The notes under the pieces were generated by a model. It had not been told where the DNA came from. It saw nothing but the letters and a program-made list of their open reading frames with translations, and searched no databases. This document shows positions 9,673 through 27,842 of a stretch of 32,824 bases of DNA, piece after piece. Position 1 is the stretch's first letter; each line of letters begins with the position of its first letter. Both the position numbers and the translations under genes were made by a program. The stretch is from a virus (lineage: Duplodnaviria; Caudoviricetes). The DNA lies in IMG/VR virus record IMGVR_UViG_3300025391_000257, positions 1 through 32,824 of that record, one strand, 5' to 3'.

Positions 9673-9691
9673 ATTTATCTCTGATAATTTA

Positions 9692-11431: not shown

Positions 11432-11437
11432 ACATAT

Positions 11438-11466: not shown

Positions 11467-11693
11467 TACATTTTTTTAGGTAATTGTTGATCTTGCAACT
11501 TTTTACGCCAACGAGCTTTGGCCGCGCCTTTTTTACGCTTACGCTCTGTAGTTGGCTTTTCGTAGAACTCTTTGGCTCTTAATACGTCCAAAAGTTTACT
11601 GTCATCAATTTTACGTTTAAATCGACGTAAGGCTTGGTTGATGTTTTCGTTATCTTTAACTGTAACACCAGTCCCTTTAGTCTTCTTGTGCAT
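11463..11693 (-). CDS. rpsU: Ribosomal protein bS21
   Basis: [19 protein letters not shown]...[14 protein letters not shown]; start at ATG 11693 after GAGG. Confidence 0.93.
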
Positions 11694-12090: not shown

Positions 12091-12160
12091 ATTAACATTC
12101 TATTATTAAGTTTTGACCAAAGACTATTTGGGTTAAATTGTTCTTCATTTTGAACATATT

Positions 12161-13468
12161 CTACTCTCTTGTTTTTGTTTGCAAGATCCCGTCCTCGTCC
12201 TTGATCATGTAGGTCTTTTTTTTTGAGTTGTCCTCGGGTAAATCAACGTCCAAAGAAACTTCGTGTCCTTCACCGTTGATATATGTTTCCCCTTTTGCTA
12301 CCCTTTCTTCAACCGTAGACTCTGGTTGGGCTATTGCCTTTTCAGCTTCTTCTATCATACGGTTCCATTTATCTAATTCACTTATAGATTCAGATGAATC
12401 TACTGTAATTTCTTCTGGCGCTGTTATATCACCTCCTAGTGCAGTCGCCGGCGTTGCGATAAATTCTTCTTCACTGATATCTTCACCAATCTCATAGTCA
12501 ACAATTGGTTCTTTTTTTGGTACTTCAAATTCTGGACCAGTCTGTATCCATTCTCCTCCAGGAGTACGCACACCTTCAAATTCGGTAACAGTTTCTTTAA
12601 TCTGCTCAATTTGAGTTTCTGTCAGAGGTCCATCATCTTTCTCGTAGTCTGCAGGCTTCTCGCCTACATCTGCTACATAAGGATCAGGTGTATCTTCTTT
12701 CAAATCTTGTTGTTCTCTTGTCCATGCAAATGTCATCTGTGCGGCTAGTAACATAATAACTGCTAGTGGATCAAATACAACAACGATTAAGATAATGATC
12801 CAAGTTACTGCTCGTTCCAGCATGGACTCGTCCGGTGCTGTTCCGTAGAGGAAGGCAGCGATATACTTAATAGGGCCAACTTCGGCTTCGACCTTACGTA
12901 CTTCTGCACGTACTGGAGCCGCTTCGTCGTTAAGACTAGCAATAAGTTTCTGCTGGGCTTCAATGTCTTTGGCAAGCGAAACCCTGTCCTTCTGCTGACT
13001 CTTACGTACAGAGTTGGCTTTGTCGGCACCTTTTTCATCTGACGAGCGACCCATGATTTGGTCCACCGCTTCATCCATCTGTTTAAGTTGCTTCCTGTCA
13101 GCTTCGATATTCTCTTTGGCAGTTTTAATTTTTTCATCATATACAGCTATTTTACTCCCGACATCGCCGCTCACTAGCGTTTGATCGTTGTGTGCTTTAC
13201 TAAGGAATCCAAAGATACCCATTGATGTGATCAGCATCAGTACAATGACTGCAATAGTCATATAGTATTTCATGAAGCGTGGAGCCTTTTCCCAATTGGC
13301 TTTTAACCAAGAGGCGCAGACAAGTTTGCCAACTTCTAGTGCCGAACCCATAATGATGATGGGAATAGCGGCCGCTGAAAAGATAGCGGTCAAACCTACT
13401 ACTGAGTAATAGATTGCGACCGCCGATATTGTTAAACCTGTTAAGAGTAGTAAGTAAGCTAGTATCAT
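12161..13468 (-). CDS. Membrane-anchored coiled-coil protein with an acidic tail; candidate -1 frameshift extends it to 12087
   Basis: Three N-terminal TM helices, a coiled coil, a further TM and an acidic tail. Start probably ATG 13468. Slippery A-AAA-AAG at 12221-12215. Confidence 0.85.
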   Translation of the reverse strand: MILAYLLLLTGLTISAVAIYYSVVGLTAIFSAAAIPIIIMGSALEVGKLVCASWLKANWEKAPRFMKYYMTIAVIVLMLITSMGIFGFLSKAHNDQTLVSGDVGSKIAVYDEKIKTAKENIEADRKQLKQMDEAVDQIMGRSSDEKGADKANSVRKSQQKDRVSLAKDIEAQQKLIASLNDEAAPVRAEVRKVEAEVGPIKYIAAFLYGTAPDESMLERAVTWIIILIVVVFDPLAVIMLLAAQMTFAWTREQQDLKEDTPDPYVADVGEKPADYEKDDGPLTETQIEQIKETVTEFEGVRTPGGEWIQTGPEFEVPKKEPIVDYEIGEDISEEEFIATPATALGGDITAPEEITVDSSESISELDKWNRMIEEAEKAIAQPESTVEERVAKGETYINGEGHEVSLDVDLPEDNSKKKTYMIKDEDGILQTKTRE

Positions 13469-13487
13469 CCTGTAATTATACACTTTC

Positions 13488-13512
13488 AATAAGGACTTTG
13501 CAAGTCCTTATT
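13488..13512. terminator. Intergenic hairpin, likely terminator
   Basis: AATAAGGACTT-TGC-AAGTCCTTATT, a perfect 11-bp inverted repeat just after the 13525 gene stop. Confidence 0.6.
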
Positions 13513-13524
13513 TGTTCAATTATG

Positions 13525-14217
13525 TTATAATGGTGAACCTGCTAGAGTAGTTCCACTGATTTGAGTTACTGCTACAGTTCCAAAGATGTTAGATGCTGTT
13601 GCATTAGGTTGTGTGATTGTAACCTTAACTTGACTATCACCTTGTTGAGCTGTATTATACACACGATATGTACGATACGTATTTGATAAAATACCTGCTG
13701 TAACTATATCTTGGATAGCCAATGCTTTGGTAGTAATAGCCGTTCCACCGATACCTACATACGCTGTTTGCCCTGTAACACCATCTGCATTAGTATACGT
13801 ACCACTTGCACTTTGCCCGATTGATTTTAAATAATTATTCCATTCACCGAGGATAAACTCATCACGGTCAAATGCAACTGTGAATGTTAGCCCGGTTGGT
13901 TGTGTTGTTGCATCTGTACCGCTGGTATTTCCAGATACTTGAACATCTAAAATTCGGCAATCGCTTACCCCATCTAGCTGATTTAAAATCATGCTCCAAC
14001 GGACGTTACCCTGTGCCAAGTACAGGGCCTGTGTAGCTGTCATGCTAGTGGCGTTAGTATATGATGAGTTAGTCCAATCGTATGGATTTACACTACCGTT
14101 AGCTGTAGTTGTACCCGAAGCGACTGGGTAATATGTCGTGCTTGTCATAGTCAACACCACTTGATAAAGTGACGGTGTTAACTGATTACTATCTTGTTGG
14201 TATCCTGATCCGGCCAT
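13525..14217 (-). CDS. Hypothetical protein, probably virion structural
   Basis: T/G/S/N-rich; TAAATA at 14242-14247 and AGGAG RBS. Confidence 0.7.
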   Translation of the reverse strand: MAGSGYQQDSNQLTPSLYQVVLTMTSTTYYPVASGTTTANGSVNPYDWTNSSYTNATSMTATQALYLAQGNVRWSMILNQLDGVSDCRILDVQVSGNTSGTDATTQPTGLTFTVAFDRDEFILGEWNNYLKSIGQSASGTYTNADGVTGQTAYVGIGGTAITTKALAIQDIVTAGILSNTYRTYRVYNTAQQGDSQVKVTITQPNATASNIFGTVAVTQISGTTLAGSPL

Positions 14218-14256
14218 TTTGCCTACTCCTAGTTTATAGTATATTTAGCTATAGAA

Positions 14257-14592
14257 TTACTTAAACACAATTAACGCAAGCATGGCGGCTTGACAAAAGA
14301 AGCCAAAACCAATGGTTACAATGTTTAAAAAATCCTTTTGGATTGCGGCCTTGATAAAAAAGCAAAATAATCCAGCCCAACTAAACAAGACCATATCAAC
14401 AGGAGGCATTTTTTCAGTGAGTCCTGTTAACACTGCTAGCATCGTAGGAAGCGTAGCTAGGTGTAGCAGAATAACTGCTACCCAGCCCATTGTTTCTGCA
14501 CTTACATGAGGTGCATGTTCTTTAACATTTTTAACCCATAAATTCAAATCAAAAAGGTCATGTACTTGTTTCTTTAAAACGTCCATATTCAT
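14257..14592 (-). CDS. Small 3-TM membrane protein
   Basis: Three hydrophobic segments; follows the SleB-like hydrolase after 11 nt. Confidence 0.75.
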   Translation of the reverse strand: MNMDVLKKQVHDLFDLNLWVKNVKEHAPHVSAETMGWVAVILLHLATLPTMLAVLTGLTEKMPPVDMVLFSWAGLFCFFIKAAIQKDFLNIVTIGFGFFCQAAMLALIVFK

Positions 14593-14603
14593 GTGTATTT
14601 TCC

Positions 14604-15134
14604 TTAGTTGTAAAAGATGTGATGGCCAATTTTAGCCACGGGTTTTTTGTTCCAGCCTGGCTGTATGTAATCCCCATGGAAATATAGGGCGTTCTTTAAG
14701 TCTGGAAGACGGAAACCTTCCAATAAGACTTTCTTTGCTACTTCCATTGACTCGGTGTACATTGGCCCATTCATAGGCTTCATGGCACTTGGTGCTTCGC
14801 AGTACCAACTAAATTGGCACATGACTTTTTGGTATACTACATTCTTTTGATATACTACCTTACAGATATCACTAGGGAAATCTCCACTTTCTGTACGGTT
14901 GATTGTGACCTGAGCTACAGCTACTTTGCCTTCAAAAGGCTCACTGCCTGCTTCATGATAGATATTACGAGCTAGACAATCTAATTGTGCTTGTCTTATT
15001 TGAGCTGTAATCGGACTCGCTTGTTCGCGAGCTTGTTTTAAGTGGTCGAACTTACGAGCCACTGTAACTTGTGCTACTGAAATAATTGCTAGAATAACCA
15101 AGCAATTTACTACTAGTTTGATAATGCGTATCAT
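14604..15134 (-). CDS. SleB/Hydrolase_2 cell-wall hydrolase
   Basis: CLARNIYHEAGSEPFEGKVAVAQVTINR, CQFSW, ALYFH and IGHHIFY; start reassigned to ATG 15134 after AAGGAG; N-terminal TM or signal anchor. Confidence 0.92.
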   Translation of the reverse strand: MIRIIKLVVNCLVILAIISVAQVTVARKFDHLKQAREQASPITAQIRQAQLDCLARNIYHEAGSEPFEGKVAVAQVTINRTESGDFPSDICKVVYQKNVVYQKVMCQFSWYCEAPSAMKPMNGPMYTESMEVAKKVLLEGFRLPDLKNALYFHGDYIQPGWNKKPVAKIGHHIFYN

Positions 15135-15305
15135 TTTTTTCTCCTTTACGCTGGATGAGGTATCGCTACTACCGTCATGAGTTAATGTTTGGCTGTATCC
15201 GTTTCTCCTATAATTAATAGCCGATGCCCCAAAACCTTTCAGGGTCAATAAGTAATTATCCTCGTTTTTCAAAGGAAAAGTACTATGTTTATACTTAGTC
15301 ACAGT

Positions 15306-15713
15306 TTAACGCCTCATTCGAGAAATGTCAACTGCTTGTTCATCACTAAAAACCGGCACTGCGTTGCTTTTATGCATGGTTGCGATGCCTTTTACCTTGT
15401 CGCCAGTATAAACCTTAGCTGGAGCAAGGGTTGCATTACCGGTAAAATCTCCACGACTTTGAATGTGGGCGGTAGTATTACGGCCCTCTGGAATCTTCAA
15501 ACTGTAACTAGAACTCAAACTTTCAGCCGACATGGCACGACGGCGTTTCTTTTCTTCTAGCTCAATACCTTGACGTTTGAGTAACTCTTTCCAACTTTCT
15601 TCCAATTCTCTAGCCTTTCTAGCATGTTCTGCCGAAGCGAATTTCTTTTTGCCTTTCTTTTTGCCTGTGGTTGAATACATAGGCGGTAATAGATGCATAC
15701 TCATTAGTAACAT
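15306..15713 (-). CDS. Basic hypothetical protein typical of T4-like phages
   Basis: C-terminal VYTGDKVKGIATMHKSNAVPVFS...DISRMRR motif. Confidence 0.8.
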   Translation of the reverse strand: MLLMSMHLLPPMYSTTGKKKGKKKFASAEHARKARELEESWKELLKRQGIELEEKKRRRAMSAESLSSSYSLKIPEGRNTTAHIQSRGDFTGNATLAPAKVYTGDKVKGIATMHKSNAVPVFSDEQAVDISRMRR

Positions 15714-16027
15714 CCAATCATTGTAATATTTTTAGCATTGTTGGCAATCCAAGCACCGTACTTTTTGTGAAATTTATCATATGGCTCACCTAACTTGTTA
15801 GGATCCAATGGTAAATGATAATAACTAAGCCAGGTTTTAACTACCCCAGTTAGATCTTCTACTGACAAATGCCCCATGGCCAAATCAAGATAATTTTGAG
15901 CTTCTTTATTCACTTTGTTTTCTGACTTTCCCTTCATATCTTTGCCGCAACTATGAGCAAAGTATTGTGCATCAAATTTTAAACAATTCCAAAAATCTTG
16001 CTGATCTGGTGTCAATTTTAACTCCAA
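15704..16027 (-). CDS. Hypothetical protein
   Basis: ORF downstream of a sigma70 promoter; the real start may be TTG at 16015, 6 nt after GGAG. Confidence 0.7.
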   Translation of the reverse strand: MELKLTPDQQDFWNCLKFDAQYFAHSCGKDMKGKSENKVNKEAQNYLDLAMGHLSVEDLTGVVKTWLSYYHLPLDPNKLGEPYDKFHKKYGAWIANNAKNITMIGCY

Positions 16028-16046
16028 AAGTTATAACAATACTAGT

Positions 16047-16075
16047 ATTATACTAGCAAACCTAACTTGTGTCAA
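16047..16075 (-). promoter_or_regulatory. Consensus sigma70 promoter
   Basis: TTGACA-17 nt-TATAAT. Confidence 0.85.
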
Positions 16076-16081
16076 TTATTG

Positions 16082-16408
16082 TTATACTCGAAAACTTTCG
16101 CCGCAACCGCAACGATCGCGTTCATTTGGATTTTGAAAATCAAATCCTTCGTTGAGCCCATTGCGGACCCAATCCATTATTAAACCATTTAGATAAGGTT
16201 CGTCTTTTAAACTGACCAGTACACAGAAGTCATTTTGAGCATAATTGATTATGCCTTCTTCGCCTTCATACTTGTCCACGTACTCTAACACATAGGCTAA
16301 CCCACTGCATCCTGTAGTTCTTACACCTACCCGAATACCAACACCCTTACCACGTTTGGCAAGATTTTGTTTAATCTTCTTTTGTGCTGTGTCTGTTACG
16401 ATAATCAT
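16082..16408 (-). CDS. iscA: Fe-S cluster A-type carrier IscA
   Basis: RVGVRTTGCSGLAY and NPNERDRCGCGESF. Confidence 0.95.
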   Translation of the reverse strand: MIIVTDTAQKKIKQNLAKRGKGVGIRVGVRTTGCSGLAYVLEYVDKYEGEEGIINYAQNDFCVLVSLKDEPYLNGLIMDWVRNGLNEGFDFQNPNERDRCGCGESFRV

Positions 16409-16763
16409 TTATGGCTGCCTTAATGGCATCTTCTGCAAGAATTGAACAATGTATCTTTACAGGTGGTAATGCTAGTTCTTCTGCGATTTGGGAGTTTTTA
16501 AGGTTAATAGCATCATCAATATGCATACCTTTAACCCACTCAGTAACCAGTGAGCTCGACGCGATTGCTGAACCGCATCCGTATGTCTTGAAACGAGCAT
16601 CTCTAATAATACCATCTTCGTCTACCTTTATTTGTAACTTCATTACATCACCACAAGCTGGTGCTCCCACCATACCTGTACCTATTGTAGGATCATTCTT
16701 ATCAAACGATCCTACATTACGAGGATTTTCATAATGATCAATTACCTTATCTGAATATGCCAT
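16371..16763 (-). CDS. iscU: Fe-S cluster scaffold IscU
   Basis: MAYSDKVIDHYENPRNVG, GAPACGDVM, KTYGCGSAIASSS and LPPVKIHCS. Confidence 0.98.
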   Translation of the reverse strand: MAYSDKVIDHYENPRNVGSFDKNDPTIGTGMVGAPACGDVMKLQIKVDEDGIIRDARFKTYGCGSAIASSSLVTEWVKGMHIDDAINLKNSQIAEELALPPVKIHCSILAEDAIKAAINDYRNRHSTKED

Positions 16764-17086
16764 TAATTTGGTACTAGAACAATAGTATATTGATTTGTCT
16801 TAGGGTCAATCATTTGAGCATAATGATAGCCAGCTGGGGGATTAAGTGTTCCAGGAGGATTTACATAAACTACTGGTGGGGGTGTAACGTATACTGGTTG
16901 TTGTTCAACTACGACATTTGGACGACTTAATTCGTATCCAATGACTCCACCTACTACAGCTGGAGCGACCCAACCCATACCGTATCCACCTCTATAACAG
17001 CAACCGCCACGATAACGAAATCCTTCATGGGCCGATGCTGTTCCTATCAGTGCTAACAATAATAAAAGTAAAACTGTCTTTTTCAT
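16763..17086 (-). CDS. Secreted Gly/Pro-rich hypothetical protein
   Basis: Signal peptide, Gly/Tyr-rich segment, WVAPAVVGGVIGY and PVYV/PPPVVY repeats. Confidence 0.8.
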   Translation of the reverse strand: MKKTVLLLLLLALIGTASAHEGFRYRGGCCYRGGYGMGWVAPAVVGGVIGYELSRPNVVVEQQPVYVTPPPVVYVNPPGTLNPPAGYHYAQMIDPKTNQYTIVLVPN

Positions 17087-17141
17087 AATATACTCCTTGG
17101 ACGTATAATAATATAACGCCTTAGACTAATATTTAGTTGAC

Positions 17142-17330
17142 TTACTTGGCTTCTTTTCTTGCGTTCTTAACTGCGGTAACATCGTTACGAGTTTCTTTGC
17201 ATAACTTAGCCAATTCTTGTAAATGCTTACGCACACGAGTACCTGCGGCTGAAACGCCTTTGTCGTAGAACTTTTCGAAATCTGATTCCATTGCTTCTAC
17301 TAGTGTTGTGAATTCTGAATATTTTGACAT
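17142..17330 (-). CDS. Histone H1-like (Hc1-family) small DNA-binding protein
   Basis: DFEKFYDKGVSAAGTRVRKHLQELAKLCKETR. Confidence 0.8.
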   Translation of the reverse strand: MSKYSEFTTLVEAMESDFEKFYDKGVSAAGTRVRKHLQELAKLCKETRNDVTAVKNARKEAK

Positions 17331-17357
17331 TTGATTCTCCTTAAAATGTGCTATAGT

Positions 17358-17386
17358 AATTTAGCACATGTTAGGGTAATTGTCAA
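17358..17386 (-). promoter_or_regulatory. sigma70-type promoter of the histone-like gene
   Basis: TTGACA-17 nt-TAAATT with an extended -10 TG. Confidence 0.65.
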
Positions 17387-17398
17387 CAAACCTGGCTT

Positions 17399-17668
17399 TT
17401 AGGGGTGTGCAAACACGGTTGTGCTAGCCGAACCTATCGAAATACCTAGTCCGGTCACAGCTCCGGTCACTGCCACAGGTTTATTTTCGGCAAACACTGT
17501 CTGTGAAAGAGTATTAACAATGACATCTCCGACATTTGGTGGGCCGCCTACTGTACTTAGATTTATGCAAGCGGTAGGTCTATTTTCAGTAATAACTGAA
17601 TTGGCTCCCACAGCAATAATACCACCTGCATGATCTTGCCCAGCTCGGGCCACTCCGTGTAATCCCAT
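17399..17668 (-). CDS. PAAR-like spike-tip protein
   Basis: VARAGQD, GGIIAVGANSVITENRPTA, TVFAENKPVAVTG and IGSASTTVFA. Confidence 0.75.
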   Translation of the reverse strand: MGLHGVARAGQDHAGGIIAVGANSVITENRPTACINLSTVGGPPNVGDVIVNTLSQTVFAENKPVAVTGAVTGLGISIGSASTTVFAHP

Positions 17669-18342
17669 TATGTTGGTCCACCTTTGGTTTTATCTAATGC
17701 TGATTGGACACTAGGTGGTAGTAAAGCCACTATTGAATCCTTGTAGGAACCTAGCCAATTGCCCACAGTTTGATAGATACCTGAATTTAATATCCAAGTG
17801 TTTACTGTACTAATAGCTTTAGAACTAACAGATACTGCCGCACTTTGTACCTTGCCCGCGGAATCTAACTTTGCACCACTGCTCACCGCCGTTGATAATT
17901 GTTTTTCTTCAGTTGGTAATGAAGGCTTATCTGGGCTTGCGGCTTGATAGTAATTGTTACTTTGTACATTGCTTGATGTGCTATGATTTAACACACTAGC
18001 ATGATGAGATCGAGCTACTGCAAGTGCTCCAATGGCAATATTCAAATTACTCAAAGAACTTGCAAGTGATTTTTTAGTATCGGCTATTCTAGTGAGACTA
18101 GAGTTGATTCCATTTAAACTAGCGGCCAGCGATCCGGGTGGAACTGAACTGTCACCTATGACTGCTATTAATTTGCCAATCATAGTTAATATGGTTGTCA
18201 TTTCGGCACCAACTGCTAGACCATACGTATCAGTAACTGTGCATGTTACCGGTACGAACGCTGGTAATATCGCCGGAATTGGAGTATTAGTAGTTCCAGG
18301 TTGCGGAATAGCTACAAAGTTTTGTATCTGACCATAGGCCAT
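17668..18342 (-). CDS. Hypothetical protein, paralog of 18342..18992
   Basis: Shares PGS...LxGINSSLTRIAD, LNIAIG, PSLPxEE and LPPSVQSxLDKxKGGPT with its neighbour. Confidence 0.8.
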   Translation of the reverse strand: MAYGQIQNFVAIPQPGTTNTPIPAILPAFVPVTCTVTDTYGLAVGAEMTTILTMIGKLIAVIGDSSVPPGSLAASLNGINSSLTRIADTKKSLASSLSNLNIAIGALAVARSHHASVLNHSTSSNVQSNNYYQAASPDKPSLPTEEKQLSTAVSSGAKLDSAGKVQSAAVSVSSKAISTVNTWILNSGIYQTVGNWLGSYKDSIVALLPPSVQSALDKTKGGPT

Positions 18343-18992
18343 TAAGTTGGTCCGCCTTTAGCTTTGTCTAGTACTGATTGCACACTAGGTGGTAGCACTG
18401 ATATTAGTGAATCCTTTGCTTGGTTTGCCCAACCGGCTACTGTTTGATACGCACTGGTTTCACCGATCCATTGTCCTAGTGATAGAGTATTTGTTGTAAC
18501 AAATTGTCCAATAGCTCCTTGAGCAACACCTGCCGCATGCAGTGCCAGTCCGCTGGTAACTCCGGCTTTTAATTGATCTTCTTCTGAGGGCAAACTAGGA
18601 GGAGGCAATCCAGAACGTTCTAATGCTTCTGCTGTTGCCTGCACTTGATAGTTATTTGTTGTTATTTGGTTAGCGGCCGCATGTGCAGTGATAGAAGTTA
18701 ATGCAGATGTACTAACTGCCATACTGCCAATAGCAATATTAAGATCACTAATAGATTTAGCTATTGCCTTGTCATAGTCGGCTATTCTAGTAAGACTAGA
18801 GTTAATACCACTTAAACAAGCACCTATGCTACCCGGTAGTGCAGGAGCCGGAGGAATACCTGGTCCATATAAGGTAGCTTGAAGAGTATTTAAGGCAGCG
18901 GTAATTGCAACTGTTTGTAAGGCTATTGCGGCAGCCGCATCGTCAGTAACAGTGGCCGTACCCGGCCCGGTCATTGTAACTACACTTGGCAT
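18342..18992 (-). CDS. Hypothetical protein, paralog of 17668..18342; probably virion/baseplate-associated
   Basis: TAAATA and AGGAG upstream; shares blocks with its neighbour; lies upstream of the PAAR gene. Confidence 0.8.
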   Translation of the reverse strand: MPSVVTMTGPGTATVTDDAAAAIALQTVAITAALNTLQATLYGPGIPPAPALPGSIGACLSGINSSLTRIADYDKAIAKSISDLNIAIGSMAVSTSALTSITAHAAANQITTNNYQVQATAEALERSGLPPPSLPSEEDQLKAGVTSGLALHAAGVAQGAIGQFVTTNTLSLGQWIGETSAYQTVAGWANQAKDSLISVLPPSVQSVLDKAKGGPT

Positions 18993-19015
18993 AGTTTATC
19001 TCCTAATAGTGATAT

Positions 19016-19306
19016 TTATGCTAGTTTTATGCCAGTTGTCTGTTCTGTGTAACGATCTGCGGCATCTTTGATAGTTGGTGCTAGGACCATTACTGTATTA
19101 CGGTTAATACTAATCTCAGCATCTGGATCTGTAGTAAACAAAAATGGAACTAGTCCGATCCCATCTTTAGTAGCTGTTAGACACAATGGCTTGCTAACCT
19201 TAACAGATATTGGACCTTCTTCAATTAGTTTTGCTACAATTTCTTCACCGGCAGTTGTTTTGATTGTTACAACTTCACCAGCTGATATACCTTTATTAAT
19301 AAGCAT
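19016..19306 (-). CDS. Hypothetical phage protein (Sm-like fold suspected)
   Basis: VVTIKTTAGEEIVAKL...KPL...LVPF...YTEQTTGI pattern. Confidence 0.7.
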   Translation of the reverse strand: MLINKGISAGEVVTIKTTAGEEIVAKLIEEGPISVKVSKPLCLTATKDGIGLVPFLFTTDPDAEISINRNTVMVLAPTIKDAADRYTEQTTGIKLA

Positions 19307-19308
19307 AA

Positions 19309-19533
19309 TTATCCTTCAAAATGTTTTTTGAGTTCTGTGAACCCGCCTATTAATTTATCGTCTAAAAATATTTGTGGTACAGTTCTGGCATTAGGTACTG
19401 CTTCTAATAGTTGTTCACGTGTATATTCTTTATTGATATTGCGTTCTTCGTAATCAATGTTTTTTAGTTTTAGTAGACTCTTTGCTTGCTCGCAGTACGG
19501 GCACTGATTTTTGCTCCAAACTATTGCTTTCAT
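19309..19533 (-). CDS. grxC: Glutaredoxin
   Basis: CPYC, RTVPQIF and IGGFTEL; start reassigned to ATG 19533. Confidence 0.93.
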   Translation of the reverse strand: MKAIVWSKNQCPYCEQAKSLLKLKNIDYEERNINKEYTREQLLEAVPNARTVPQIFLDDKLIGGFTELKKHFEG

Positions 19534-19630
19534 TCTTCTTATCCTTCTTAAAAATATTATCCCAGTTACTTTCAAAAGTCTTGCGATCGACACTGAAAGG
19601 TCTGGACTTGCTTCCTTTACCTGCCATCAT
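19454..19630 (-). CDS. Small basic protein (58 aa, absent from the ORF track)
   Basis: AGGAG RBS, then MMAGKGSKSRPFSVDRKTFESNWDNIFKK... Confidence 0.75.
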   Translation of the reverse strand: MMAGKGSKSRPFSVDRKTFESNWDNIFKKDKKNESNSLEQKSVPVLRASKESTKTKKH

Positions 19631-19639
19631 GAACTCCTA

Positions 19640-20740
19640 TTATAGTGCTGGTAGGGCATCATAGTCGATGCCTTCACTCATCACGCCAATCACATAATTG
19701 GTTGATTCGCTTTCTTGTAGTGCTGTTTGTTTTTTACTTGTATCAACGTGTTTGTTAAACCAAGGAATAGGTGTACTACGTGGTGCGGCCTGTTGATATT
19801 TGATGCCAATTTGCTTTAATGCATCTACCGCTGTGTAGTCCACAAAGTCTTTAAGAATATTTGCGTTAAGACCAATAACTGGACCTTTCTTAAACAAGTA
19901 GTCTGCCCATTGCTTTTCCTCACGGATAACATCTACGTACATACTATACACTTCTTGTTCACAATCGATCTTGGCCTGTGCAAAACGTGAATCTTCTTTG
20001 ACTACTTGATTGATCAAATAGGCTGTCCATCCTTTGTGTAGTAATTCGTCCTGTAAGATCAAACTGATAATGTTACCATTACCGATAAAGATCTTGTTTT
20101 CTACCATTGCAAGAGAAGTTGCAAATGATACCATGAAGCGGAAGGCTTCGAGGGCGTAACTAGCATTAAGAGCCAACCAAATGGCCTTGATATGTGTTTG
20201 TTCATCGATTGTTTCACCAGATTCTTTTTGGCAATTAATTAAATGCAAATCATCATAATACTTGCCTACACTTGATGCCATACTGACAATTTCTTCAGTG
20301 TCGTGGATAGTGTTGAACACATCCTTGGGCACATTATAGATGTTACGGATTATATGACTGTAGCTCTTGCTGTGGATGTTGGTTTCGAAGAATCCCCAGT
20401 TGTACATGAGGGCTTCGACTTCTGGTAAGGAACACACTGGAGTAAATACCTGCGTTGGTCCTCTACCTTGAAGACTATCAAGTGCCGTTTGGCGTAATAA
20501 ATTGCTGGTAAAGATATGTTTAATTGCATCGCTCGCGTCCTTAAAGTCATTGGCGTCTTTGGTAAGACTAATCTCTTCGGGTTGCCAGAAGAAGCCTCGG
20601 GCTGTCGCTTCAAAGTCTGCAATCTTCTTGTATTTAACCTCTTCGAATCGTTGAATAGTCACCGGACCCGCTGGATCCAAAAACATCTTACGGTTCAAAT
20701 AGTCTGTGCGTGTGTTTAAATTATATTGTTCTTTGCTCAT
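19640..20740 (-). CDS. nrdB: Class Ia ribonucleotide reductase beta subunit
   Basis: FFWQPEEI, ALDSLQ, FETNIHSKSY, LEAFRF and QDELLH: metal ligands and radical Tyr present. Confidence 0.97.
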   Translation of the reverse strand: MSKEQYNLNTRTDYLNRKMFLDPAGPVTIQRFEEVKYKKIADFEATARGFFWQPEEISLTKDANDFKDASDAIKHIFTSNLLRQTALDSLQGRGPTQVFTPVCSLPEVEALMYNWGFFETNIHSKSYSHIIRNIYNVPKDVFNTIHDTEEIVSMASSVGKYYDDLHLINCQKESGETIDEQTHIKAIWLALNASYALEAFRFMVSFATSLAMVENKIFIGNGNIISLILQDELLHKGWTAYLINQVVKEDSRFAQAKIDCEQEVYSMYVDVIREEKQWADYLFKKGPVIGLNANILKDFVDYTAVDALKQIGIKYQQAAPRSTPIPWFNKHVDTSKKQTALQESESTNYVIGVMSEGIDYDALPAL

Positions 20741-23058
20741 AGCTTACATGCCTCACATGATTCTTGATCATCAAAATCAATTGGCTCTAACATAGCCGGT
20801 GCGTCTTCTTGTACTGCTTTGCTTCCAGCTTTGTTTATCAAACTGTAGTAGAATGTCTTCAATCCCCACGCATGTGCCTGCATCAAATTTCGAGCAATCA
20901 GTGTAGTTGGTACTTTACGATCTGCAAAATGTGCCGGATTGTAAAAGGTATTAGTACTTATACTTTGATCTACATAGGCGGCTAAGACTGATGCTGTTTT
21001 TAAATAACCATCGCAATCTTTTTGTTCCCACATGAGCTGATACTTGTTTTTAAGTTTAGCATATTCAGGCACTACTTGTGTAAATGAACCTGCTTTTGAT
21101 TCTTTAGTACTGATCAAACTCATGGGTAACTCAATTCCATTAGTGCTGTTTATAACAACACTACTGCTTTCGACCGGAGCAATAGCCATTAGGGTGGCAT
21201 TGCGAACACCGTACTGTTTCATATTAGTACGTAGTGTTTCCCAATCAAGTTCTGGGGCAAAGTCTGCTAGTTCATTAACACCCTCTGCTCGTAATTCCCA
21301 AGGGAATATGCCTTGACCGTATCTTGTTTGATGGCTGTCAACACATGCACCACGTTCTTTAGCCAGCTCTACGGTAGCTTCTGTCAGGTAATAGGCTTGA
21401 TGTTCCATCCATGTTTTAACTTCTTGTAGAGAATCTCGTTCGCCATATTTTAAACTACGTTTAGCATGCCAATAGGCAAGATTAGTTACACCGATGCCTA
21501 GAGGTTGTATTTCATCATTGCTTAGTTTACTTTGGATACTTAGGAAATCTTGATAATCAAGAATATTACATAGACTGCGTTGCAGAATACGACAAGCACG
21601 ACGCATGTCTTCTGGATTACGGAAGGCTCCCCAGTTAATGCTACCTAATGTACAAAGAGCAATACGACCCATGGCATCATCAAGACGTTTGAAAGGACGA
21701 GTAGGTAGTAGTATTTCACAGCATAAGTTACTTTGATATATTGTATGAAACTCGGGGTCGAATGGTCCTTGGTTCTGTACGTTGTCAATAAACACAAGAT
21801 AGATACGTCCCGTGTCTGTACGTTCTTTTAGTATGCCTGACTTGAATACTTCTTCGGCTGACATTGTCTTCTTACGTAGGTCTCGACGTTTTTCGTATTT
21901 TACATACAGTTCTTCAAATTCTGCTGTGTTACGATAAAAGGCTTCATATAGGTCGGGTACTTCATTCGGATCAAAGAAGGTGATGTTTTCTTTGTTCTTG
22001 AAACGGCGCCAAAAGAACTTGCTAAGGACAACTCCGTAGTCCATGTGTCTAACTCTTGTTTCCTCTGTACCTTGGTTGTTTTTAAGAACAATAAGGTCAT
22101 CAAACTGATGATGCCAAATGGGATAAAATACAGTAGCACTTGCATTACGAATACCTCCTTGACTGCATGAGCGTAAATCTCCGAACCACTTCTTTAAGAA
22201 TGGTATCATACCAGTATGCATGATTTCGCCACCGCGAATTGGGGAGCCCAATGGGCGTAGTCGACCGATCTCCAGTCCAATCCCTGCACGTTTACTGGCA
22301 TACTTGGCCATCATCTCACCACTAGCAAATATGCTATCCAAATCGTCGTCACTGCGGATAAGCACACAACTAGAAAACTGTTTAGTCGGAGTGCCAAGCC
22401 CAGCCAAGACAGGTGTAGCAAGAGTAAACAACCCATCGGATGCCGCTTGATAGTATTCTTTAATGTAACGCATCCTTGCGCTATTCGGTTCTTCTCTATG
22501 AAATACTGTAGCCGCTGCCACAATATATCTAATTTGTGGAGTTTCATAAATTTCCTTTGTCGCACGATTGCGTACCAAATACTTCTCTATCAACTGCTCA
22601 ATTGCCGCATATGAATACTGCTCATCTTTTTCGTGATCTAGCATAGAATCCATTTTATTCCAATCATCTTCCGTATACCATTCTAATAGTTCTGGAGTAT
22701 ACAATCCGATATCGACGTTTTTCTTTACGATCGTATAGAGATGGGGAACAGTATAATCACCATATACATCTTTACGTAGCATTGACAAACGTTGCTTGCC
22801 TGCTACGTGTTGATAGTTAACATGTCCTACGTCTGGATTTGATTCAACATCAATGAGGTCCACAATAGCTCGTAGAGTTATTTCATCGATTTCTTGTGTA
22901 GTGATACCGTCATAGAAATGTGGCTGGCTTTTGATTTCAATCATTGATTGACTAACATCAGCAATACCTTTACAAACTTTTGCAATTTGCGCTTGCCATT
23001 TTTCTACCGCTAATGTCTCTCTATCGCCACTTCTTTTTATTACTGTGATGTTATTCAT
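20737..23058 (-). CDS. nrdA: Class Ia ribonucleotide reductase alpha subunit
   Basis: N-terminal ATP-cone-like region, FSSCVL, SNLCCEI, LKTFYY and C-terminal CEAC; no intron or intein seen. Confidence 0.98.
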   Translation of the reverse strand: MNNITVIKRSGDRETLAVEKWQAQIAKVCKGIADVSQSMIEIKSQPHFYDGITTQEIDEITLRAIVDLIDVESNPDVGHVNYQHVAGKQRLSMLRKDVYGDYTVPHLYTIVKKNVDIGLYTPELLEWYTEDDWNKMDSMLDHEKDEQYSYAAIEQLIEKYLVRNRATKEIYETPQIRYIVAAATVFHREEPNSARMRYIKEYYQAASDGLFTLATPVLAGLGTPTKQFSSCVLIRSDDDLDSIFASGEMMAKYASKRAGIGLEIGRLRPLGSPIRGGEIMHTGMIPFLKKWFGDLRSCSQGGIRNASATVFYPIWHHQFDDLIVLKNNQGTEETRVRHMDYGVVLSKFFWRRFKNKENITFFDPNEVPDLYEAFYRNTAEFEELYVKYEKRRDLRKKTMSAEEVFKSGILKERTDTGRIYLVFIDNVQNQGPFDPEFHTIYQSNLCCEILLPTRPFKRLDDAMGRIALCTLGSINWGAFRNPEDMRRACRILQRSLCNILDYQDFLSIQSKLSNDEIQPLGIGVTNLAYWHAKRSLKYGERDSLQEVKTWMEHQAYYLTEATVELAKERGACVDSHQTRYGQGIFPWELRAEGVNELADFAPELDWETLRTNMKQYGVRNATLMAIAPVESSSVVINSTNGIELPMSLISTKESKAGSFTQVVPEYAKLKNKYQLMWEQKDCDGYLKTASVLAAYVDQSISTNTFYNPAHFADRKVPTTLIARNLMQAHAWGLKTFYYSLINKAGSKAVQEDAPAMLEPIDFDDQESCEACKL

Positions 23059-23281
23059 TGTTCTCTATTCTTTTACTGTGATTTGGATTATTAATATAAT
23101 GTACTTAATTCTGTTTAGGAAGTATTTAGTGAAGACCAAATGAGTAAAAAATCTTATTGATAGACAACGGTTTATGTGTGTCTTTCGCAGAAAATCGAAC
23201 GATTTTTTTATTAATAAATCTTATCATGGTAACAGTATAAATTATATGCGCATTTATCGCAATCACCTAATGATTTGAGTA

Positions 23282-25225
23282 TTAAGAAATTGAACGATAT
23301 GTGTAGGTAAATACGCCCGAATCAGAAATGTTATTAACATAACTGATTACGATTGACCAAGGATTGGTAATGGTTACAGTGCCAGTGTTGTCTACATACT
23401 GAGCTTGGAAATCTAAGTAGGTGGCAATGGTATCTCCAGCATCGCTTCCTGCAAAATCATAATCATCAGTTAACTGAATCATTTTGTCAGCAGGATCAGC
23501 AGAAATAGTTATAGTACCTCTTCTTGTAAAATGATTTTGACTTGAATAAAAATAATCAATGACATATACAATACTTGCTCCACTAGGACCAGTAGTTCTA
23601 TCAGTAGTAAGAGGTAACCAAGGAATTGGCAATTTTAAAACTGGCACATACACACTTGTTTGACTTATACTAATAGTCTTTGTACCAAACGCTGAATATA
23701 TAATGTGTCCGGTAACTTCTGGAACATATGGTACAGTACCGTATGTACCACTCGGAGCACTTAAATCAGCTGATCTGTCACTTTGGCTATTGAAGTCTAA
23801 ATTACCATAGGTAGCAAAGTATACTTGTGGGTATTGGCTAACACCATTAGTACCTCCGTTGTTACCTACTCCAATATACTTGCAGTCTCTAGTAACGTTG
23901 CCAGTTCCGGTTGCAACATACACAGCTTCTTGCTGTATATTATTAAATTTGCTATTAATAATTTCAGTTTGTCTAGGACCGTTTGGGTTTGCCAATGTGA
24001 TAGCGCCGCCAAGCCCTAGGCAGAAACCTTGTAATGAATTTGTCAAATAACAATTTTCGAATATGTTGTTTAATATATCATCTTTAGCAAACACGTCATA
24101 TGTGAATCCGCCCGAGGTGCTTGTAGAACCACTTCGACCAAATTGAATACACCTAAACACATTATGTTCGCATGATGTTCCGCTTGGACCTCCGCTAACA
24201 GCAGTCATGTGCATACCGATACTATTGGTATTTGTAAGAGTTGTATAACCGCCAATCAAACAAATATTTTCAAACAGGCTATCTCGAACAGAGTTTAATA
24301 ACATTGCAGTGTTAAGACCTGTGTAAGTTTCAATATTTAAATTGCTTAACTGAATTTTTCGAGATTGATTAGTACTGTTGGCAATTGATGGATCAGGGTT
24401 ACCTGGTGAACTACTATCATTAACAAACTGAATAGCAGGAGATGGAACTGTTAATGTAATAACTGTACTAGGAGTAGACACTAATGGCAGATTACTAAGT
24501 GTTATACTCACTCCCGGATTAACCGTAGAGATATAAGTGTTAGGTGGAATAATGCCAGCAACTGAACATGTAACTATTTGATTTTGCATCGACGATACTG
24601 CCGATGTCATCGGCACTATTGCGTTATTGATAGTTATAGCTACAGTAAAATTAGTCTGCGTAGGTACAAAATTTATAATAGTCTTGTCAATACCTGCGCC
24701 TACGATTGTAGAGTAACTGGGAATATAAATCGTGCTTGTAGTTTTATAGATACCCGGTGGTATCGTTAATGTTACACGAGTATTAGTAGCTGTAGATAAA
24801 TTTGCAGGATTACTCGGATTTAAAAATAATTGATTAATAGCACGTTGTAACGCGGCAGTATCGTCGGCAATCCCATCCCCAACAGTGCCAAAGTCTACAG
24901 TTGTTATTTGGTCATCTAAACGATTAGTAATAGAACGACTTATAGGAGTGTTAGCGTTTGGGCCTGTGGTAATTGCGGCATTGTTAGATCCATATACGTA
25001 CTGTACTAGTCCTAGCAAGTTACCTTCAAGACCTAAGTCTTGTTCTGTAACAATTCGTATATTGCTTACACCCGGGGCGCCTTCACTAACTGCGCCACTG
25101 CCGATGAATAGTTGCTGGGTGTCAATTGCCCAAGCCATCTCGCCAGATGCTAACTGTGGTAACCCTGTACCTTGATTTGCTTGCCCGCGGCGAACCTGTA
25201 TTCTTGAGATTTGATAAACAGCCAT
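23282..25225 (-). CDS. Tail fibre/spike protein with pectate-lyase-like beta-helix
   Basis: ISRIQVRRG...LASGEMAWAIDTQQLFIG N-terminal fibre motif; DFGTVGDGIADDTAALQRAI and IPPGIY; N/I-rich beta-helix repeats. Confidence 0.85.
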   Translation of the reverse strand: MAVYQISRIQVRRGQANQGTGLPQLASGEMAWAIDTQQLFIGSGAVSEGAPGVSNIRIVTEQDLGLEGNLLGLVQYVYGSNNAAITTGPNANTPISRSITNRLDDQITTVDFGTVGDGIADDTAALQRAINQLFLNPSNPANLSTATNTRVTLTIPPGIYKTTSTIYIPSYSTIVGAGIDKTIINFVPTQTNFTVAITINNAIVPMTSAVSSMQNQIVTCSVAGIIPPNTYISTVNPGVSITLSNLPLVSTPSTVITLTVPSPAIQFVNDSSSPGNPDPSIANSTNQSRKIQLSNLNIETYTGLNTAMLLNSVRDSLFENICLIGGYTTLTNTNSIGMHMTAVSGGPSGTSCEHNVFRCIQFGRSGSTSTSGGFTYDVFAKDDILNNIFENCYLTNSLQGFCLGLGGAITLANPNGPRQTEIINSKFNNIQQEAVYVATGTGNVTRDCKYIGVGNNGGTNGVSQYPQVYFATYGNLDFNSQSDRSADLSAPSGTYGTVPYVPEVTGHIIYSAFGTKTISISQTSVYVPVLKLPIPWLPLTTDRTTGPSGASIVYVIDYFYSSQNHFTRRGTITISADPADKMIQLTDDYDFAGSDAGDTIATYLDFQAQYVDNTGTVTITNPWSIVISYVNNISDSGVFTYTYRSIS

Positions 25226-25251
25226 GAAAATATCCTCTTATGTGATATTTA

Positions 25252-25971
25252 TCAGTTCTGTTTGTAGTACTGCTCCACCCTATCCCACCACTTTTGTTCC
25301 CAGTAGCTAAAATCACCGGGTTTTAGGATAAATTCCTGATAAACAGGAACATCAATCATTTCTAATTGTTCGTTCATTTTAGGACTGACACACATTAATA
25401 CAACACCCTTTCGAATGTTAGTCCCGTAGACTTCGTTGTGTGCTAGTGCGTAGGCTGTTAGCTGTAAGTAGTAGTCTTCAATCCACTCTTCTTTCTTAGG
25501 CTTGTTGGTCTGCTTGTAGTCAATAATAGCTTCATCATTTAAATGGAGACCGCAACCATCAGTAGTTCCCGCATATAGACCGGGAAAGTATAAGGGCACT
25601 TCTACACCCCATATTTCGTTTACATTACACAAGCCTTGGGCAATAACCACATTGGCCATTGCATGACTTTGCTTACTGTAGGGATTGGTACCGGGCGCAT
25701 TGATTACACCAGTTTTAACATAGTCTTCTAGGAACTTGTGCATACGTGTTCCACGACCGCTGGCTTCAGTTACAATTTCTTGTGCTTTCTTTTCACCAAC
25801 ACGTTTTTTCCAATTGTTAAGGGCGTCAATCTTTTCTTGTGGTTTAGTTTTGTCCAGAATAGTAGTTACACTGGGAACTTTAGTTCCGTCTGGAAGTGCG
25901 TAAAGACGCTTACCTTCTACACTTTGTCGATTAATAGGCGTGTAGTTAAACCTTTCTTGTAATAAAGTCAT
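25252..25971 (-). CDS. PD-(D/E)XK exonuclease (Cas4/MGME1-like)
   Basis: VPSVTTIL, GRGTRMH, EVPL, YAGTTD, IIDYKQ and YYLQLTAYA. Confidence 0.9.
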   Translation of the reverse strand: MTLLQERFNYTPINRQSVEGKRLYALPDGTKVPSVTTILDKTKPQEKIDALNNWKKRVGEKKAQEIVTEASGRGTRMHKFLEDYVKTGVINAPGTNPYSKQSHAMANVVIAQGLCNVNEIWGVEVPLYFPGLYAGTTDGCGLHLNDEAIIDYKQTNKPKKEEWIEDYYLQLTAYALAHNEVYGTNIRKGVVLMCVSPKMNEQLEMIDVPVYQEFILKPGDFSYWEQKWWDRVEQYYKQN

Positions 25972-25979
25972 ATAGAGCT

Positions 25980-26008
25980 AGTATACGCTAACTTTATCTA
26001 AAGGTCAA
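25980..26008 (-). promoter_or_regulatory. sigma70-type promoter of the exonuclease gene
   Basis: TTGACC-17 nt-TATACT, ending 8 nt before the ATG. Confidence 0.7.
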
Positions 26009-26317
26009 CTACGCGAACTCTCGATCTGTGGCTGCCATCGCCATTTTTGTTATATCATCTTCGCCATTATCTTGCCCCTGACCTTTTGGTTCTTGTTTAT
26101 TGTTAGTATTAAGAACTATACCTTGGTCGTTAAAACGGGTAACAAGTTGTTTAAGGATTGGATCGCTGTCCCAACGTGCTTTGAATCGATTATAGTCGAT
26201 TGGGATACCAGCATTTTGAAGTTCTTCCCAAGTTTCAACTTCTTCTTGGTCAGTATTATTGGCTGCAGATTGCATAACCTGCAGCCTTTGAATTAACGGA
26301 TCTATTGTTTCAATTAT
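26009..26317 (-). CDS. Orphan reading frame, probably the -1 frameshift extension of 26314..27351
   Basis: Frame is open from the A10 run: IIETIDPLIQRLQV-MQSAANN...DREFA. The internal ATG at 26275 sits in a hairpin loop. Confidence 0.65.
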   Translation of the reverse strand: MIETIDPLIQRLQVMQSAANNTDQEEVETWEELQNAGIPIDYNRFKARWDSDPILKQLVTRFNDQGIVLNTNNKQEPKGQGQDNGEDDITKMAMAATDREFA

Positions 26318-27351
26318 TTTTTTTTTGATTGAGCTAAAAGGATGCCTAACTTGCGGCTGTATTCAACGCCTTCACGCTTCATACGACCGGCAGCTTCTGG
26401 GCCTGCTCCGCCTGCTTCAGCACCCATCTCTGGTGCTTCTTCTTCACCGCCTGGCATTGGAGGCATACCGCCTTCAGCACCCATAGCTGGAGCTTCTTCT
26501 GCACCGGGTACTGGAGGCATACCGCCTGTGTCAGCACCCATTGTAGGAGCTTCGCCACCTGATACTACAGATAGTCCAGCTGATAGTCCTTGACGACTTG
26601 ATTCTAATGCTGAATAAACTTGTTCTAGTGCTGGTTTGACTGATTGCTCGTACTTGCTAGCAACGTCACTGCCTAGTGTTTCTCTTATAGAGTCTAATAA
26701 TTCTAAAAGGTGTTCAGCTTTTAGCTGAGCAACGTCTTCTAGCCAGCCTGTAATTTGGTCGACCATGTCTTTAGTTGCCATAATTACTGATGCTTTTTGT
26801 TCTTCGCCTTCTTTCAAGTAAACGATATAGTTAGCCTGACTTTCTGATAGGTCATAACGTGTGGTTAATTCTGCGGCCAATTCTTCTTCATCTGATTCGC
26901 CTAATTTGATACGACTGATTGCTGATTCGATCCACTTAGTTGGAACTGAATGCTCACGTGCCTTTTTAACCATTAATGCTAAACTTACACTTTCCATTTT
27001 CTTTTTCTTATCCTTTGCGGCCTTCTTCATGGCTTCTTTCTTATTACCATCTTTATCTAGATCTAGGAAATCTGGTTTTGCGCCTTCATACATGCCTTCT
27101 TCACGCTCTAAGATGTGTTGATTAATAACATCTAATAAAGCGCGAGTCTTTTGATATTTTGGATTTGAACTGATGTTATCGAAACTTTCACTAACTTCGA
27201 ATTGGCTCATTTCAGTACGTAGTTTATTACGTACATCTTCTAACTGGGCATCACTAAACTGTTCTAAATTTAGTTTGTAGCCAAACTGTTTAGCTAGGCT
27301 TTCATTAAGCTTCTTAGCTGTGATTGGTTTTGATAGTTCTCTAATTTGCAT
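26314..27351 (-). CDS. Putative prohead core/scaffold-like protein
   Basis: TATAAATA upstream; start MQIREL at 27351; acidic and helical; KPDFLDLDKDGNKKE motif; PG/E-rich linker; ends SKKK. Confidence 0.65.
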   Translation of the reverse strand: MQIRELSKPITAKKLNESLAKQFGYKLNLEQFSDAQLEDVRNKLRTEMSQFEVSESFDNISSNPKYQKTRALLDVINQHILEREEGMYEGAKPDFLDLDKDGNKKEAMKKAAKDKKKKMESVSLALMVKKAREHSVPTKWIESAISRIKLGESDEEELAAELTTRYDLSESQANYIVYLKEGEEQKASVIMATKDMVDQITGWLEDVAQLKAEHLLELLDSIRETLGSDVASKYEQSVKPALEQVYSALESSRQGLSAGLSVVSGGEAPTMGADTGGMPPVPGAEEAPAMGAEGGMPPMPGGEEEAPEMGAEAGGAGPEAAGRMKREGVEYSRKLGILLAQSKKK

Positions 27352-27383
27352 GATGGTTTCCCTAAAGCGTTTCTTATTACTAT

Positions 27384-27842
27384 TTATACAAAACTCCACT
27401 TAAACATAGTGGAAATCTTTTCCTGGAAATGTTCAGCGAGGAATTTGCTGTGTTCTAGTTTGTTCAACAGAACCAAATACCTGTCGTAATCTTTGGCTGT
27501 TTTGATGTTCTTACTGTATATCATAGTATCAGAATAATAAGCCCAGTACCTAGTGTCTAATCTTTTAATCTCTATGAATTTTTCTATGCTAGATTTACTA
27601 TACTCCTTAGCCGCCATGATTGCGCAGGTTTTTAAGTAAAATTGCTCGATCACATCTTTGTTACGAATATCGTAAATAGCCCAGTTTTCGTGGTCGTTTT
27701 GTTTGATATAGTAGTTCTTATAGACAATTGACCCGTCTGGTTGTACACTTATTGGTAATGATTTTTTAAGATCTGCTTCAAAGTGCGTTACTAGTTCTTT
27801 GACTATCTTGGGATTAGGTTTTTTAGTTTTGGTTTTTTTCAT
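27384..27842 (-). CDS. Hypothetical phage protein
   Basis: 152-aa ORF that overlaps the upstream gene. Confidence 0.8.
   Translation of the reverse strand: MKKTKTKKPNPKIVKELVTHFEADLKKSLPISVQPDGSIVYKNYYIKQNDHENWAIYDIRNKDVIEQFYLKTCAIMAAKEYSKSSIEKFIEIKRLDTRYWAYYSDTMIYSKNIKTAKDYDRYLVLLNKLEHSKFLAEHFQEKISTMFKWSFV

Follow-up and report, generated by a model that had tools for sequence, protein, structure and literature searches.

The 32,824-nt DNA stretch analyzed here (IMG/VR record IMGVR_UViG_3300025391_000257, positions 1 to 32,824; hereafter the window) is a piece of a large T4-like phage with its genes on the minus strand. The same adenine-run cassette was found near the 3' end of two unrelated genes, and sequence comparison with relatives indicates that both runs are conserved frame-switch sites, not assembly errors. 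Recoding of some kind very probably takes place at these sites. As for the mechanism, we lean towards polymerase-led slippage at the runs; a ribosomal -1 shift is a likely second route, and both may contribute. The elements concerned are as follows.

12161..13468, minus strand: site-1 gene, 0 frame; 435 aa, ATG at 13468, function unassigned
12215..12226, minus strand: slip cassette 1, TCA AAA AAA AAG; A9 at 12216-12224
12161..12214, minus strand: short-form tail; 17 aa, basic, overlapping the -1 frame
12087..12215, minus strand: long-form tail with the YVQNxEQ motif; 42 aa in the -1 frame, its TGA overlapping the next ATG
26314..27351, minus strand: site-2 gene, 0 frame; 345 aa, predicted head-core or internal protein
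26314..26328, minus strand: slip cassette 2, TCA AAA AAA AAA TAA; A10 at 26317-26326, in relatives A9G, A9C or A10
26009..26317, minus strand: -1 extension of the site-2 gene, starting IIE; 102 aa, a winged-helix-like domain followed by a disordered tail
26261..26286, minus strand: RNA hairpin of 11 bp, 30 nt 3' of the site-2 stop; z -3.8
27381..27388, minus strand: TATAAATA, T4-type late-promoter-like motif upstream of the site-2 gene

A first-pass annotation, made from the sequence alone, had singled out an A9 and an A10 as the two longest homopolymers of the window. This was correct, except that on the plus strand they are T runs (T9 at 12216-12224 and T10 at 26317-26326), the coding minus strand reading A9 and A10; all remaining A/T runs in the window are of 7 nt or less. 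The TC prefix and the Ser-Lys-Lys-Lys phase that it described as shared were likewise found in both cassettes, TCA AAA AAA AAG at site 1 and TCA AAA AAA AAA TAA at site 2. The Ser codon turned out to be preferred, not required, as Pro, Ala, Leu, Gly and Gln codons also occurred at this position in relatives; where Ser was used, it was encoded by TCA in 54/58 and 51/51 cases at the sites, as against 16-21% of the Ser codons genome-wide. The -1 frame was open for 42 codons at site 1 and for 102 codons at site 2. In order-4 Markov simulations of the window, two or more runs of at least nine A's arose in 92/200 sequences and two runs preceded by TC in 2/200. The coincidence of two runs is thus modest when judged within the window alone, and since a chance pairing is not a small probability there, the weight of the argument rests on the relatives.

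A homopolymer error in sequencing or assembly has to be considered, as no homopolymer in the window is longer than the two runs, but it can practically be dismissed. The same length and phase recurred in more than 100 independent, diverged contigs, the site-1 tails showed selection in both frames, and deeply covered DNA agreed: a 984-nt contig of the DNA run X8 crossed the A10 gap-free at a depth of 289. The indel list of X8 contained none at either run, the site-1 contig itself lying outside the part of the table shown. A run one base longer in accurate reads, which the first-pass annotation had named as a possible objection, was therefore not what the deep data gave.

Site 1 sits 17 codons 5' of the 0-frame stop, and the long form would be of about 460 aa; the TGA of its tail overlaps the ATG of the following gene (11677-12090). 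Among 141 loci of relatives, 80 were kept, of which 59 were distinct and untruncated. Site 1 was present in 45 of these 59. Three loci had one extra A, so that the long tail was read in frame and the short one in +1; in one the cassette lay 3' of an in-frame stop, four had YVQNxEQ in frame without the run, and six had other C-termini. The short tail measured 15-18 aa in 63/63 loci with a pN/pS of 0.29, and the YVQNxEQ motif was found in the long tail in 63/63 loci. The pN/pS of the -1 frame was 0.32 past the 0-frame stop and 0.94 inside the overlap. These values indicate that both tails are under purifying selection, and that the overlapping part of the -1 frame is an open linker without constraint, the constraint starting past the stop.

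The run was also recovered with patterns that were blind to it, namely sequence patterns excluding the A run that were used to find site-1 contexts. The first set gave 30 A9, 2 TCT-A8 and 1 A10 in 33 orthologous contexts, together with 21 more distinct matches, all of them unrelated; the second set (n=47) gave 39 A9, 5 TCT-A8, 1 A10, 1 frame-broken A8 and 1 cut sequence. The variant TCT+A8G accounted for 4/64 and 5/47 site-1 contexts. In eleven more distant contigs carrying the site-1 gene, five combined A9 (phase 1 or 2) with a long tail encoded in -1, one had an A8 variant (A9 in a sister contig), one showed another arrangement, and four encoded the long tail in frame. A long-range helix at site 1, pairing TACATGA with the GYV codons, was examined and showed no covariation, 138/500 shuffles scoring as high.

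Several single loci deviated from these arrangements. L493 and L496 had the long tail in frame, yet an A9 run remained 365-390 nt upstream, where a slip either way would truncate the protein, as in the layout of Thermus dnaX. L486, an outgroup homolog, carried a short-tail-like stretch and then a QNxEQ motif in one frame behind TCT-A8. The two contigs L494 and L499 had a phase-1 A9 at which the 0 frame stopped after 7 codons and the -1 frame gave a short-tail-like stretch without YVQNxEQ. In L147 an in-frame TAA (approximately 3738-3740) lay about 55 codons 5' of an intact site 1, and the frame resumed after it.

The site-1 protein is hydrophobic at about residues 1-54, 64-91 and 213-248, and has a charged middle and an acidic tail (27% D/E). 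Family searches returned weak matches only, and the homologs in cultured large phages were distant (25-42% identity over the N-terminal 53-65% of the protein). We infer that two isoforms of a membrane protein would result from the slip at site 1, one ending in the basic tail of 17 aa and the other in the YVQNxEQ tail. As a working guess by analogy with TssM1 (PMC4256274), the protein might be a scaffold anchored in the membrane, with each tail binding a different partner and the two forms made at a set ratio.

At site 2, 80 of 93 loci of relatives were kept, 79 of them untruncated. All 79 read C-A9, next a G (67), C (7) or A (5), and then TAA, and in all 79 the -1 frame spanned 100-122 codons; among the matches listed, the protein ended in xKKK or xKKN in 120/120. 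The run, its phase and the open -1 frame were thus retained in relatives, contrary to the random phase and closed frames that the first-pass annotation had considered as the other outcome. The extension showed a pN/pS of 0.29 (uncorrected, 38 close pairs), and indels 3' of the site-2 stop preserved its frame. The long form would be of about 447 aa. The suggestion that the same -1 shift yields sensible products at both genes agrees with these data, the -1 frames being open and the long and short products being under selection.

The 345-aa protein had 2734 homologs. Its match in PHROG, a virion structural protein, was weak (96 aa, E 6e-7); Pfam gave no match for either site-2 frame, and the gene was not found in cultured phages. 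The structural model of the 345-aa protein was all-helical, with a Gly/Pro/Ala-rich linker before the last helix (pLDDT 68.9, pTM 0.32), and that of the extension showed helix-strand-three helices-hairpin (pLDDT 72.8). Fold searches with the extension gave no match at E<=0.001. That the domain binds DNA is a guess from the model.

The neighbors of the sites are an exonuclease, a nucleotidyltransferase-like gene, bS21 and genes of unassigned function, and neither site lies between major tail and tape measure genes. Neither is a tail-chaperone frameshift. The relatives therefore bear out the proposal of one slip cassette in two unrelated genes outside that setting.

A different explanation is that the downstream frames are separate genes, translated by reinitiation or from a non-canonical start, and that the Lys run is only a protein motif. 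Gene callers do annotate truncated versions, 15 marine relatives have the site-2 domain as a gene of its own, and 12/53 extensions contain an ATG in their first 10 codons. On the other side, 15/53 lack an ATG within their first 40 codons, the position of a start is not conserved, and the conserved region begins at the first codon past the run; the bias to TCA at the sites also speaks against a mere protein motif. Furthermore, where an own start is present the A run has been lost (15 loci, 1 intermediate). We therefore consider separate genes very unlikely as the general explanation.

The loss of the run was followed in more distant relatives, using 63 distinct gene ends from L295-L390 with exclusion of 20 weak matches (L391-L410) and the truncated L304. 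In the 62 gene ends, 35 had an A heptamer without an own start, 20 an own start without a heptamer, and 7 both. In 6 of these 7 the ATG was, by eye, an internal Met without a Shine-Dalgarno (SD) sequence; L297 had a real SD and ATG together with A_AAA_AAG. Fifteen of the 20 own-start loci were marine: the site-2 run was gone and the same domain lay directly downstream (profile E 3e-12 or better), mostly behind a TAAGGA-like SD and ATG, with the leaders MKVSEI, MRVSDI or MKIFEL. The other 5 were the outgroup, in which another gene intervenes before the domain. In a quick tree, which has long branches near the root, the own-start rows were scattered among slip-type rows and three changes were needed, so the slip looks older than the own start, and may have been lost more than once, or lost and then regained. 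Three marine loci of one clade had only GGA AAA AAG (A6), with the -1 frame open and no own start. In L299 and L328, and in the truncated L304, a second in-register A_AAA_AAG stood directly 5' of the stop, a few codons past the A9.

In the scheme proposed for the long form, the winged-helix-like domain of the fusion would enter the prohead in a small and fixed number of copies, and a protease of the T4 gp21 type would cut it free at an [ILV]xE motif just behind the junction. This motif occurred in the first 8 aa of the extension in 53/53 freshwater and 38/41 marine slip-type loci, as against 7% of random windows. T4 gp21 cleaves after L/I-X-E (PMC9026906), and the junction motif often has Val, which is outside the T4 motif. 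The 345-aa protein itself contains nine [ILV]xE motifs and is predicted to be a head-core or internal protein. The upstream TATAAATA resembles a T4-type late promoter; TAAATA lay within 60 nt of the site-2 gene start in 51/53 loci, against a background of 79-85 of 327-368 open reading frames per genome. The relative G003 encodes a portal and a gp21-type head maturation protease (phrog_207, E 4e-58), and the separate-gene version of the domain begins, by eye, with a leader like those of the neighboring genes. On the late-promoter-like motif, the protease and portal of G003, the junction motif and the marine own-start leaders, we infer that the long form brings the domain into the prohead, where it would be cut at the junction. 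In the window, the leaders MRINEL, MKIKDI and MQIQEL of neighboring genes (27823-29463) resemble MQIREL of the site-2 gene, and these genes are possibly a cluster of head-targeted proteins.

The extent of the cassette was examined in genomes. CA9 occurred 2-4 times in each of five long relatives. The three near-complete relatives G001-G003 (345-383 kb) had 11 runs of at least nine A's, six of which were the two sites; the other five lay between genes, at the boundary of a gene, or in phase 1 where the -1 frame had 10-42 codons, and a genome-wide A9 scheme was accordingly rejected. A scan for in-frame heptamers followed by long -1 extensions gave three sites present in all of G001-G003, the two A sites and one T_TTT_TTC, the remaining candidates being mostly, by eye, ordinary overlaps with the ATG of the next gene. 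The genome-wide recoding scheme envisaged by the first-pass annotation thus reduces to a cassette common to two genes and one further conserved site. The positions outside the window are given here.

G003:C1:174372 (L169), G001:C1:88841 and G002:C1:99412, with L411-L475: third site, T_TTT_TTC, from the heptamer scan
G003:C1:363403-363556, G001:C1:274482-274636 and G002:C1:273451-273606: tRNA-Lys pair

The third -1 site lies at the end of a baseplate hub gene (phrog_150), near the portal, and adjoins a long gene that may be the tape measure. T6 was kept in 41/41 distinct loci, with a -1 frame of about 75 codons bearing a WYMRGG motif; 2 loci were cut by contig ends. No description of this site was found in the literature search. 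In the coding regions of G001-G003, runs of at least eight A's numbered 25 against 125 expected and those of at least eight T's 1 against 33, being purged in all phases. In-register A6 was also depleted (160 seen, 217 expected), with A_AAA_AAG at 0.40 of expectation. A stronger avoidance of A_AAA_AAG than of A_AAA_AAY (p 3e-4) shrank under a synonymous-shuffle control, where A_AAA_AAG stood at 0.40 and A_AAA_AAC at 0.47 of expectation. In all three genomes the tRNA-Lys UUU and CUU genes were adjacent, within sets of 29-41 tRNAs, and each had a tmRNA gene.

In the mechanism that we favor, the host RNA polymerase would add one A while copying the nine-A run in a fraction of transcripts, and ribosomal -1 slippage on the overlapping A_AAA_AAG would be a second route. 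Unslipped site-2 mRNA would then give the 345-aa late protein and slipped mRNA the fusion of about 447 aa. Because the cassette xxA AAA AAA AAG satisfies both known routes, length, phase, tRNA and RNA data were weighed. Nine A's are retained though a tandem tRNA slip needs only the heptamer, and the third site retains only T6; nine A/T is the length reported for slippage of bacterial RNA polymerase (PMC5009743). A9 was seen in phases 0, 1 and 2 among relatives, and any A9 also contains an in-register heptamer. The presence of both tRNA-Lys CUU and UUU in 3/3 genomes was counted for the polymerase by the parallel with Thermus, as the availability of two lysine tRNAs has been tied to the use of slippage there (PMC5009743). 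No phage multisubunit RNA polymerase was found in the three genomes.

The RNA evidence came from assembled contigs of six RNA runs; X15-X17 gave no RNA cover of site 1, X19 fell short of site 2, and X20 yielded only a piece of a relative. Three RNA contigs of this strain crossed the A10 of the DNA contig, and one of them read A11, the change that brings the site-2 extension into frame. Another single contig, from X15, ended exactly where the run ends and was not counted.

The same two products would be expected if the shift were mainly ribosomal, by tandem -1 slippage of two tRNA-Lys on A_AAA_AAA and A_AAA_AAG, heptamers that overlap in xxA AAA AAA AAG, or by sliding on consecutive AAA codons, aided at site 2 by the adjacent stop and the 3' hairpin. 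An in-register A_AAA_AAN was present in every site-bearing variant examined, including A6G and A8G, and G followed the run in 67/79 site-2 loci. The hairpin at site 2 had a mean folding z of -3.65 over 53 loci; in most freshwater relatives it covaries and lies closer to the stop than the +30 of the window, its covariation score was reached by 0/500 shuffles, and 74% of cells were paired against 28-48% when slid. The second A_AAA_AAG before the stop in L299 and L328, the depletion of in-register A6 and A_AAA_AAG, and the T6C heptamer site elsewhere in the clade point the same way. In E. coli no heptamer is more prone to shifting than A_AAA_AAG (PMC5009743), and sliding of ribosomes on consecutive AAA is known (PMC4363877). 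Ribosomal slippage alone, however, does not explain the retention of nine A's. The hairpin started 0-48 nt from the stop (median 12), whereas the usual spacing of a stimulator is 5-9 nt. RNAalifold gave no consensus over all 53 site-2 loci and no structure on either full alignment, and folding at marine loci did not differ between slip-type and own-start versions (p 0.31). Site 1 had no covarying structure, and no upstream SD-like stimulator was detected at either site (mean duplex energy no better than -1.8 kcal/mol at any offset, with an anti-SD 9-mer). The phage tRNA-Lys CUU should damp slips on AAG, and the avoidance of A_AAA_AAG did not exceed that of A_AAA_AAC under the shuffle control. 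A mainly ribosomal shift is thus a serious possibility, though one that we hold to be less likely than polymerase-led slippage. Control by Lys-tRNA supply, raised in the first-pass annotation, would be plausible under the ribosomal mechanism only; for control by speD or bS21, nothing ties either gene to the sites beyond its presence in the window.

A switch at the DNA level, by replication slippage or phase variation, would mean that genomes with one more A make only the long form. Single contigs with one A more or fewer do exist (L084, L117, L118, L482 and L531), and P0162 and P0178 are in-frame fusions of the site-2 protein and a downstream domain, natural or assembly variants. Such contigs are rare, though, and the A8 of the single-contig variant L482 was A9 in a second contig of the same lineage. 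The deep DNA run had no indel, although contigs drop rare variants, and selection on both tails in nearly all lineages fits a constant use of both. We give little credence to such a switch. The inverted arrangements of L084, L117 and L118 were also tried as proof of two-way slippage and were not confirmed, being single contigs; no second record was found for L117 or L118.

Taken with polymerase-led slippage as favored above, the observations can be joined, tentatively, into one reading: the clade may use slippage of the host RNA polymerase on A9 as a reusable dose dial and, at site 2, load a winged-helix passenger into the head as a protease-released fusion, lineages swapping between the fusion and a separate gene that has a ribosome-binding site and a targeting leader of its own, and runs being kept almost only where wanted. 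Several points weigh against the polymerase route and the head model. The A11 contig had a depth of 3.7 with 20 nt on its short side and could reflect a slip in reverse transcription or PCR, and the two other RNA contigs crossed the run as A10. The A6G marine clade and TCT-A8G at site 1 fit the ribosome better, and the covarying freshwater hairpin at site 2 is not yet transcribed while the polymerase sits on the run. The fold matches of the extension were weak, mostly to winged-helix proteins, with a best Z of 4.7, and a scan of bacterial genomes was empty and named no host.

Judged from sequence and RNA contigs, the sites would work like the slippage of Thermus dnaX and tssM1 or the frameshifting of E. 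coli dnaX. In Thermus thermophilus dnaX, tau and gamma arise by transcriptional slippage on nine A/T (PMC5009743, PMC3711429). The nine-A run, two products with a common N-terminus and two lysine tRNAs are shared with that system, in which, however, the long form is in frame and the slip truncates, whereas here the slip is needed for the long form; the present case also concerns a phage, in which two genes without relation to each other are involved and there is no more than a hint of extra A's in mRNA. The closest parallel to site 1 is tssM1 of Citrobacter rodentium, where slippage on A11 reaches about 20% and both forms and their ratio are needed (PMC4256274). It too is a membrane protein with a slip-extended form, a run near the stop and no SD or structure, but the protein is unrelated, and here the run is A9G and the short form ends in a selected tail of its own that overlaps the frame of the long form.

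E. coli dnaX and insertion sequence (IS) elements use -1 ribosomal frameshifting at A_AAA_AAG (PMC5009743, PMC3711429), and poly-A sites can serve both mechanisms (PMC3711429). The in-register A_AAA_AAG and the 3' hairpin at freshwater site 2 resemble these, unlike the lack of an upstream SD-like signal, the variable hairpin spacing, the phage tRNA-Lys CUU and the nine-A run. Frameshifts in phage structural genes include lambda G/GT, the T3/T7 capsid, Lactobacillus A2, and capsid and tail of Listeria A118/A500/PSA (PMC5009743). They share with the present sites a minor, C-terminally extended late protein, and the Listeria phages have more than one frameshifted gene. They differ in being ribosomal, in using other motifs and in adding Ig-like or chaperone domains; here one A9 cassette lies in two unrelated genes for neither capsid nor tail, and the extra domain would, as predicted, be cleaved off within the head. 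Internal and core head proteins of T4 carry capsid targeting sequences and are cleaved by gp21, and engineered IPIII fusions are packaged (PMC9026906). The late expression signal, the N-terminal leader with [ILV]xE and the gp21-type protease of the clade are similar, whereas no family match to T4 proteins was found and natural loading by a frameshift fusion is a proposal made here. Bacteroidetes phages with bS21 (PMC9723584) present a different bS21 context, and the accessible part of that paper does not mention frameshift or slippage.

Other parts of the window (101-11702, 16082-23058 and 31110-31529) contain host-like genes for bS21, Hsp20, ClpS, CsgG/CsgF and FecR-like proteins, a heme oxygenase beside a ferredoxin-dependent bilin reductase, and IscU/IscA-like proteins, NrdA/NrdB, glutaredoxin and SpeD. 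A DnaK-like open reading frame was recognized by eye at 7702-9612.

The phages that carry the sites form a widespread clade of giant T4-like phages of lakes and seas. In a literature search, for which most subscription papers and supplements were outside the scope, no description of the gene families or of the cassette was found; the recoding is of a known kind, in undescribed gene families. The contributions of the window are one cassette common to two genes of different families, a census of the runs in genomes, tails encoded in two frames, the replacement of a fusion by a separate gene, and a motif at the junction. At these loci the annotation is wrong in hundreds of genomes of uncultured phages, which either miss the long forms or list them as truncated orphans. 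One cassette of 12 bases works both beside a stop and hairpin and inside a dual-coding stretch without structure, and its natural variants from A6G to A10 form a series with which slippage by polymerase and by ribosome, an old ambiguity at poly-A sites, could be told apart. How such recoding disappears, and possibly returns, is illustrated by the change between a frameshift fusion and a separate gene. The head model, if true, would have nature doing what has been engineered in T4, namely loading by fusion.

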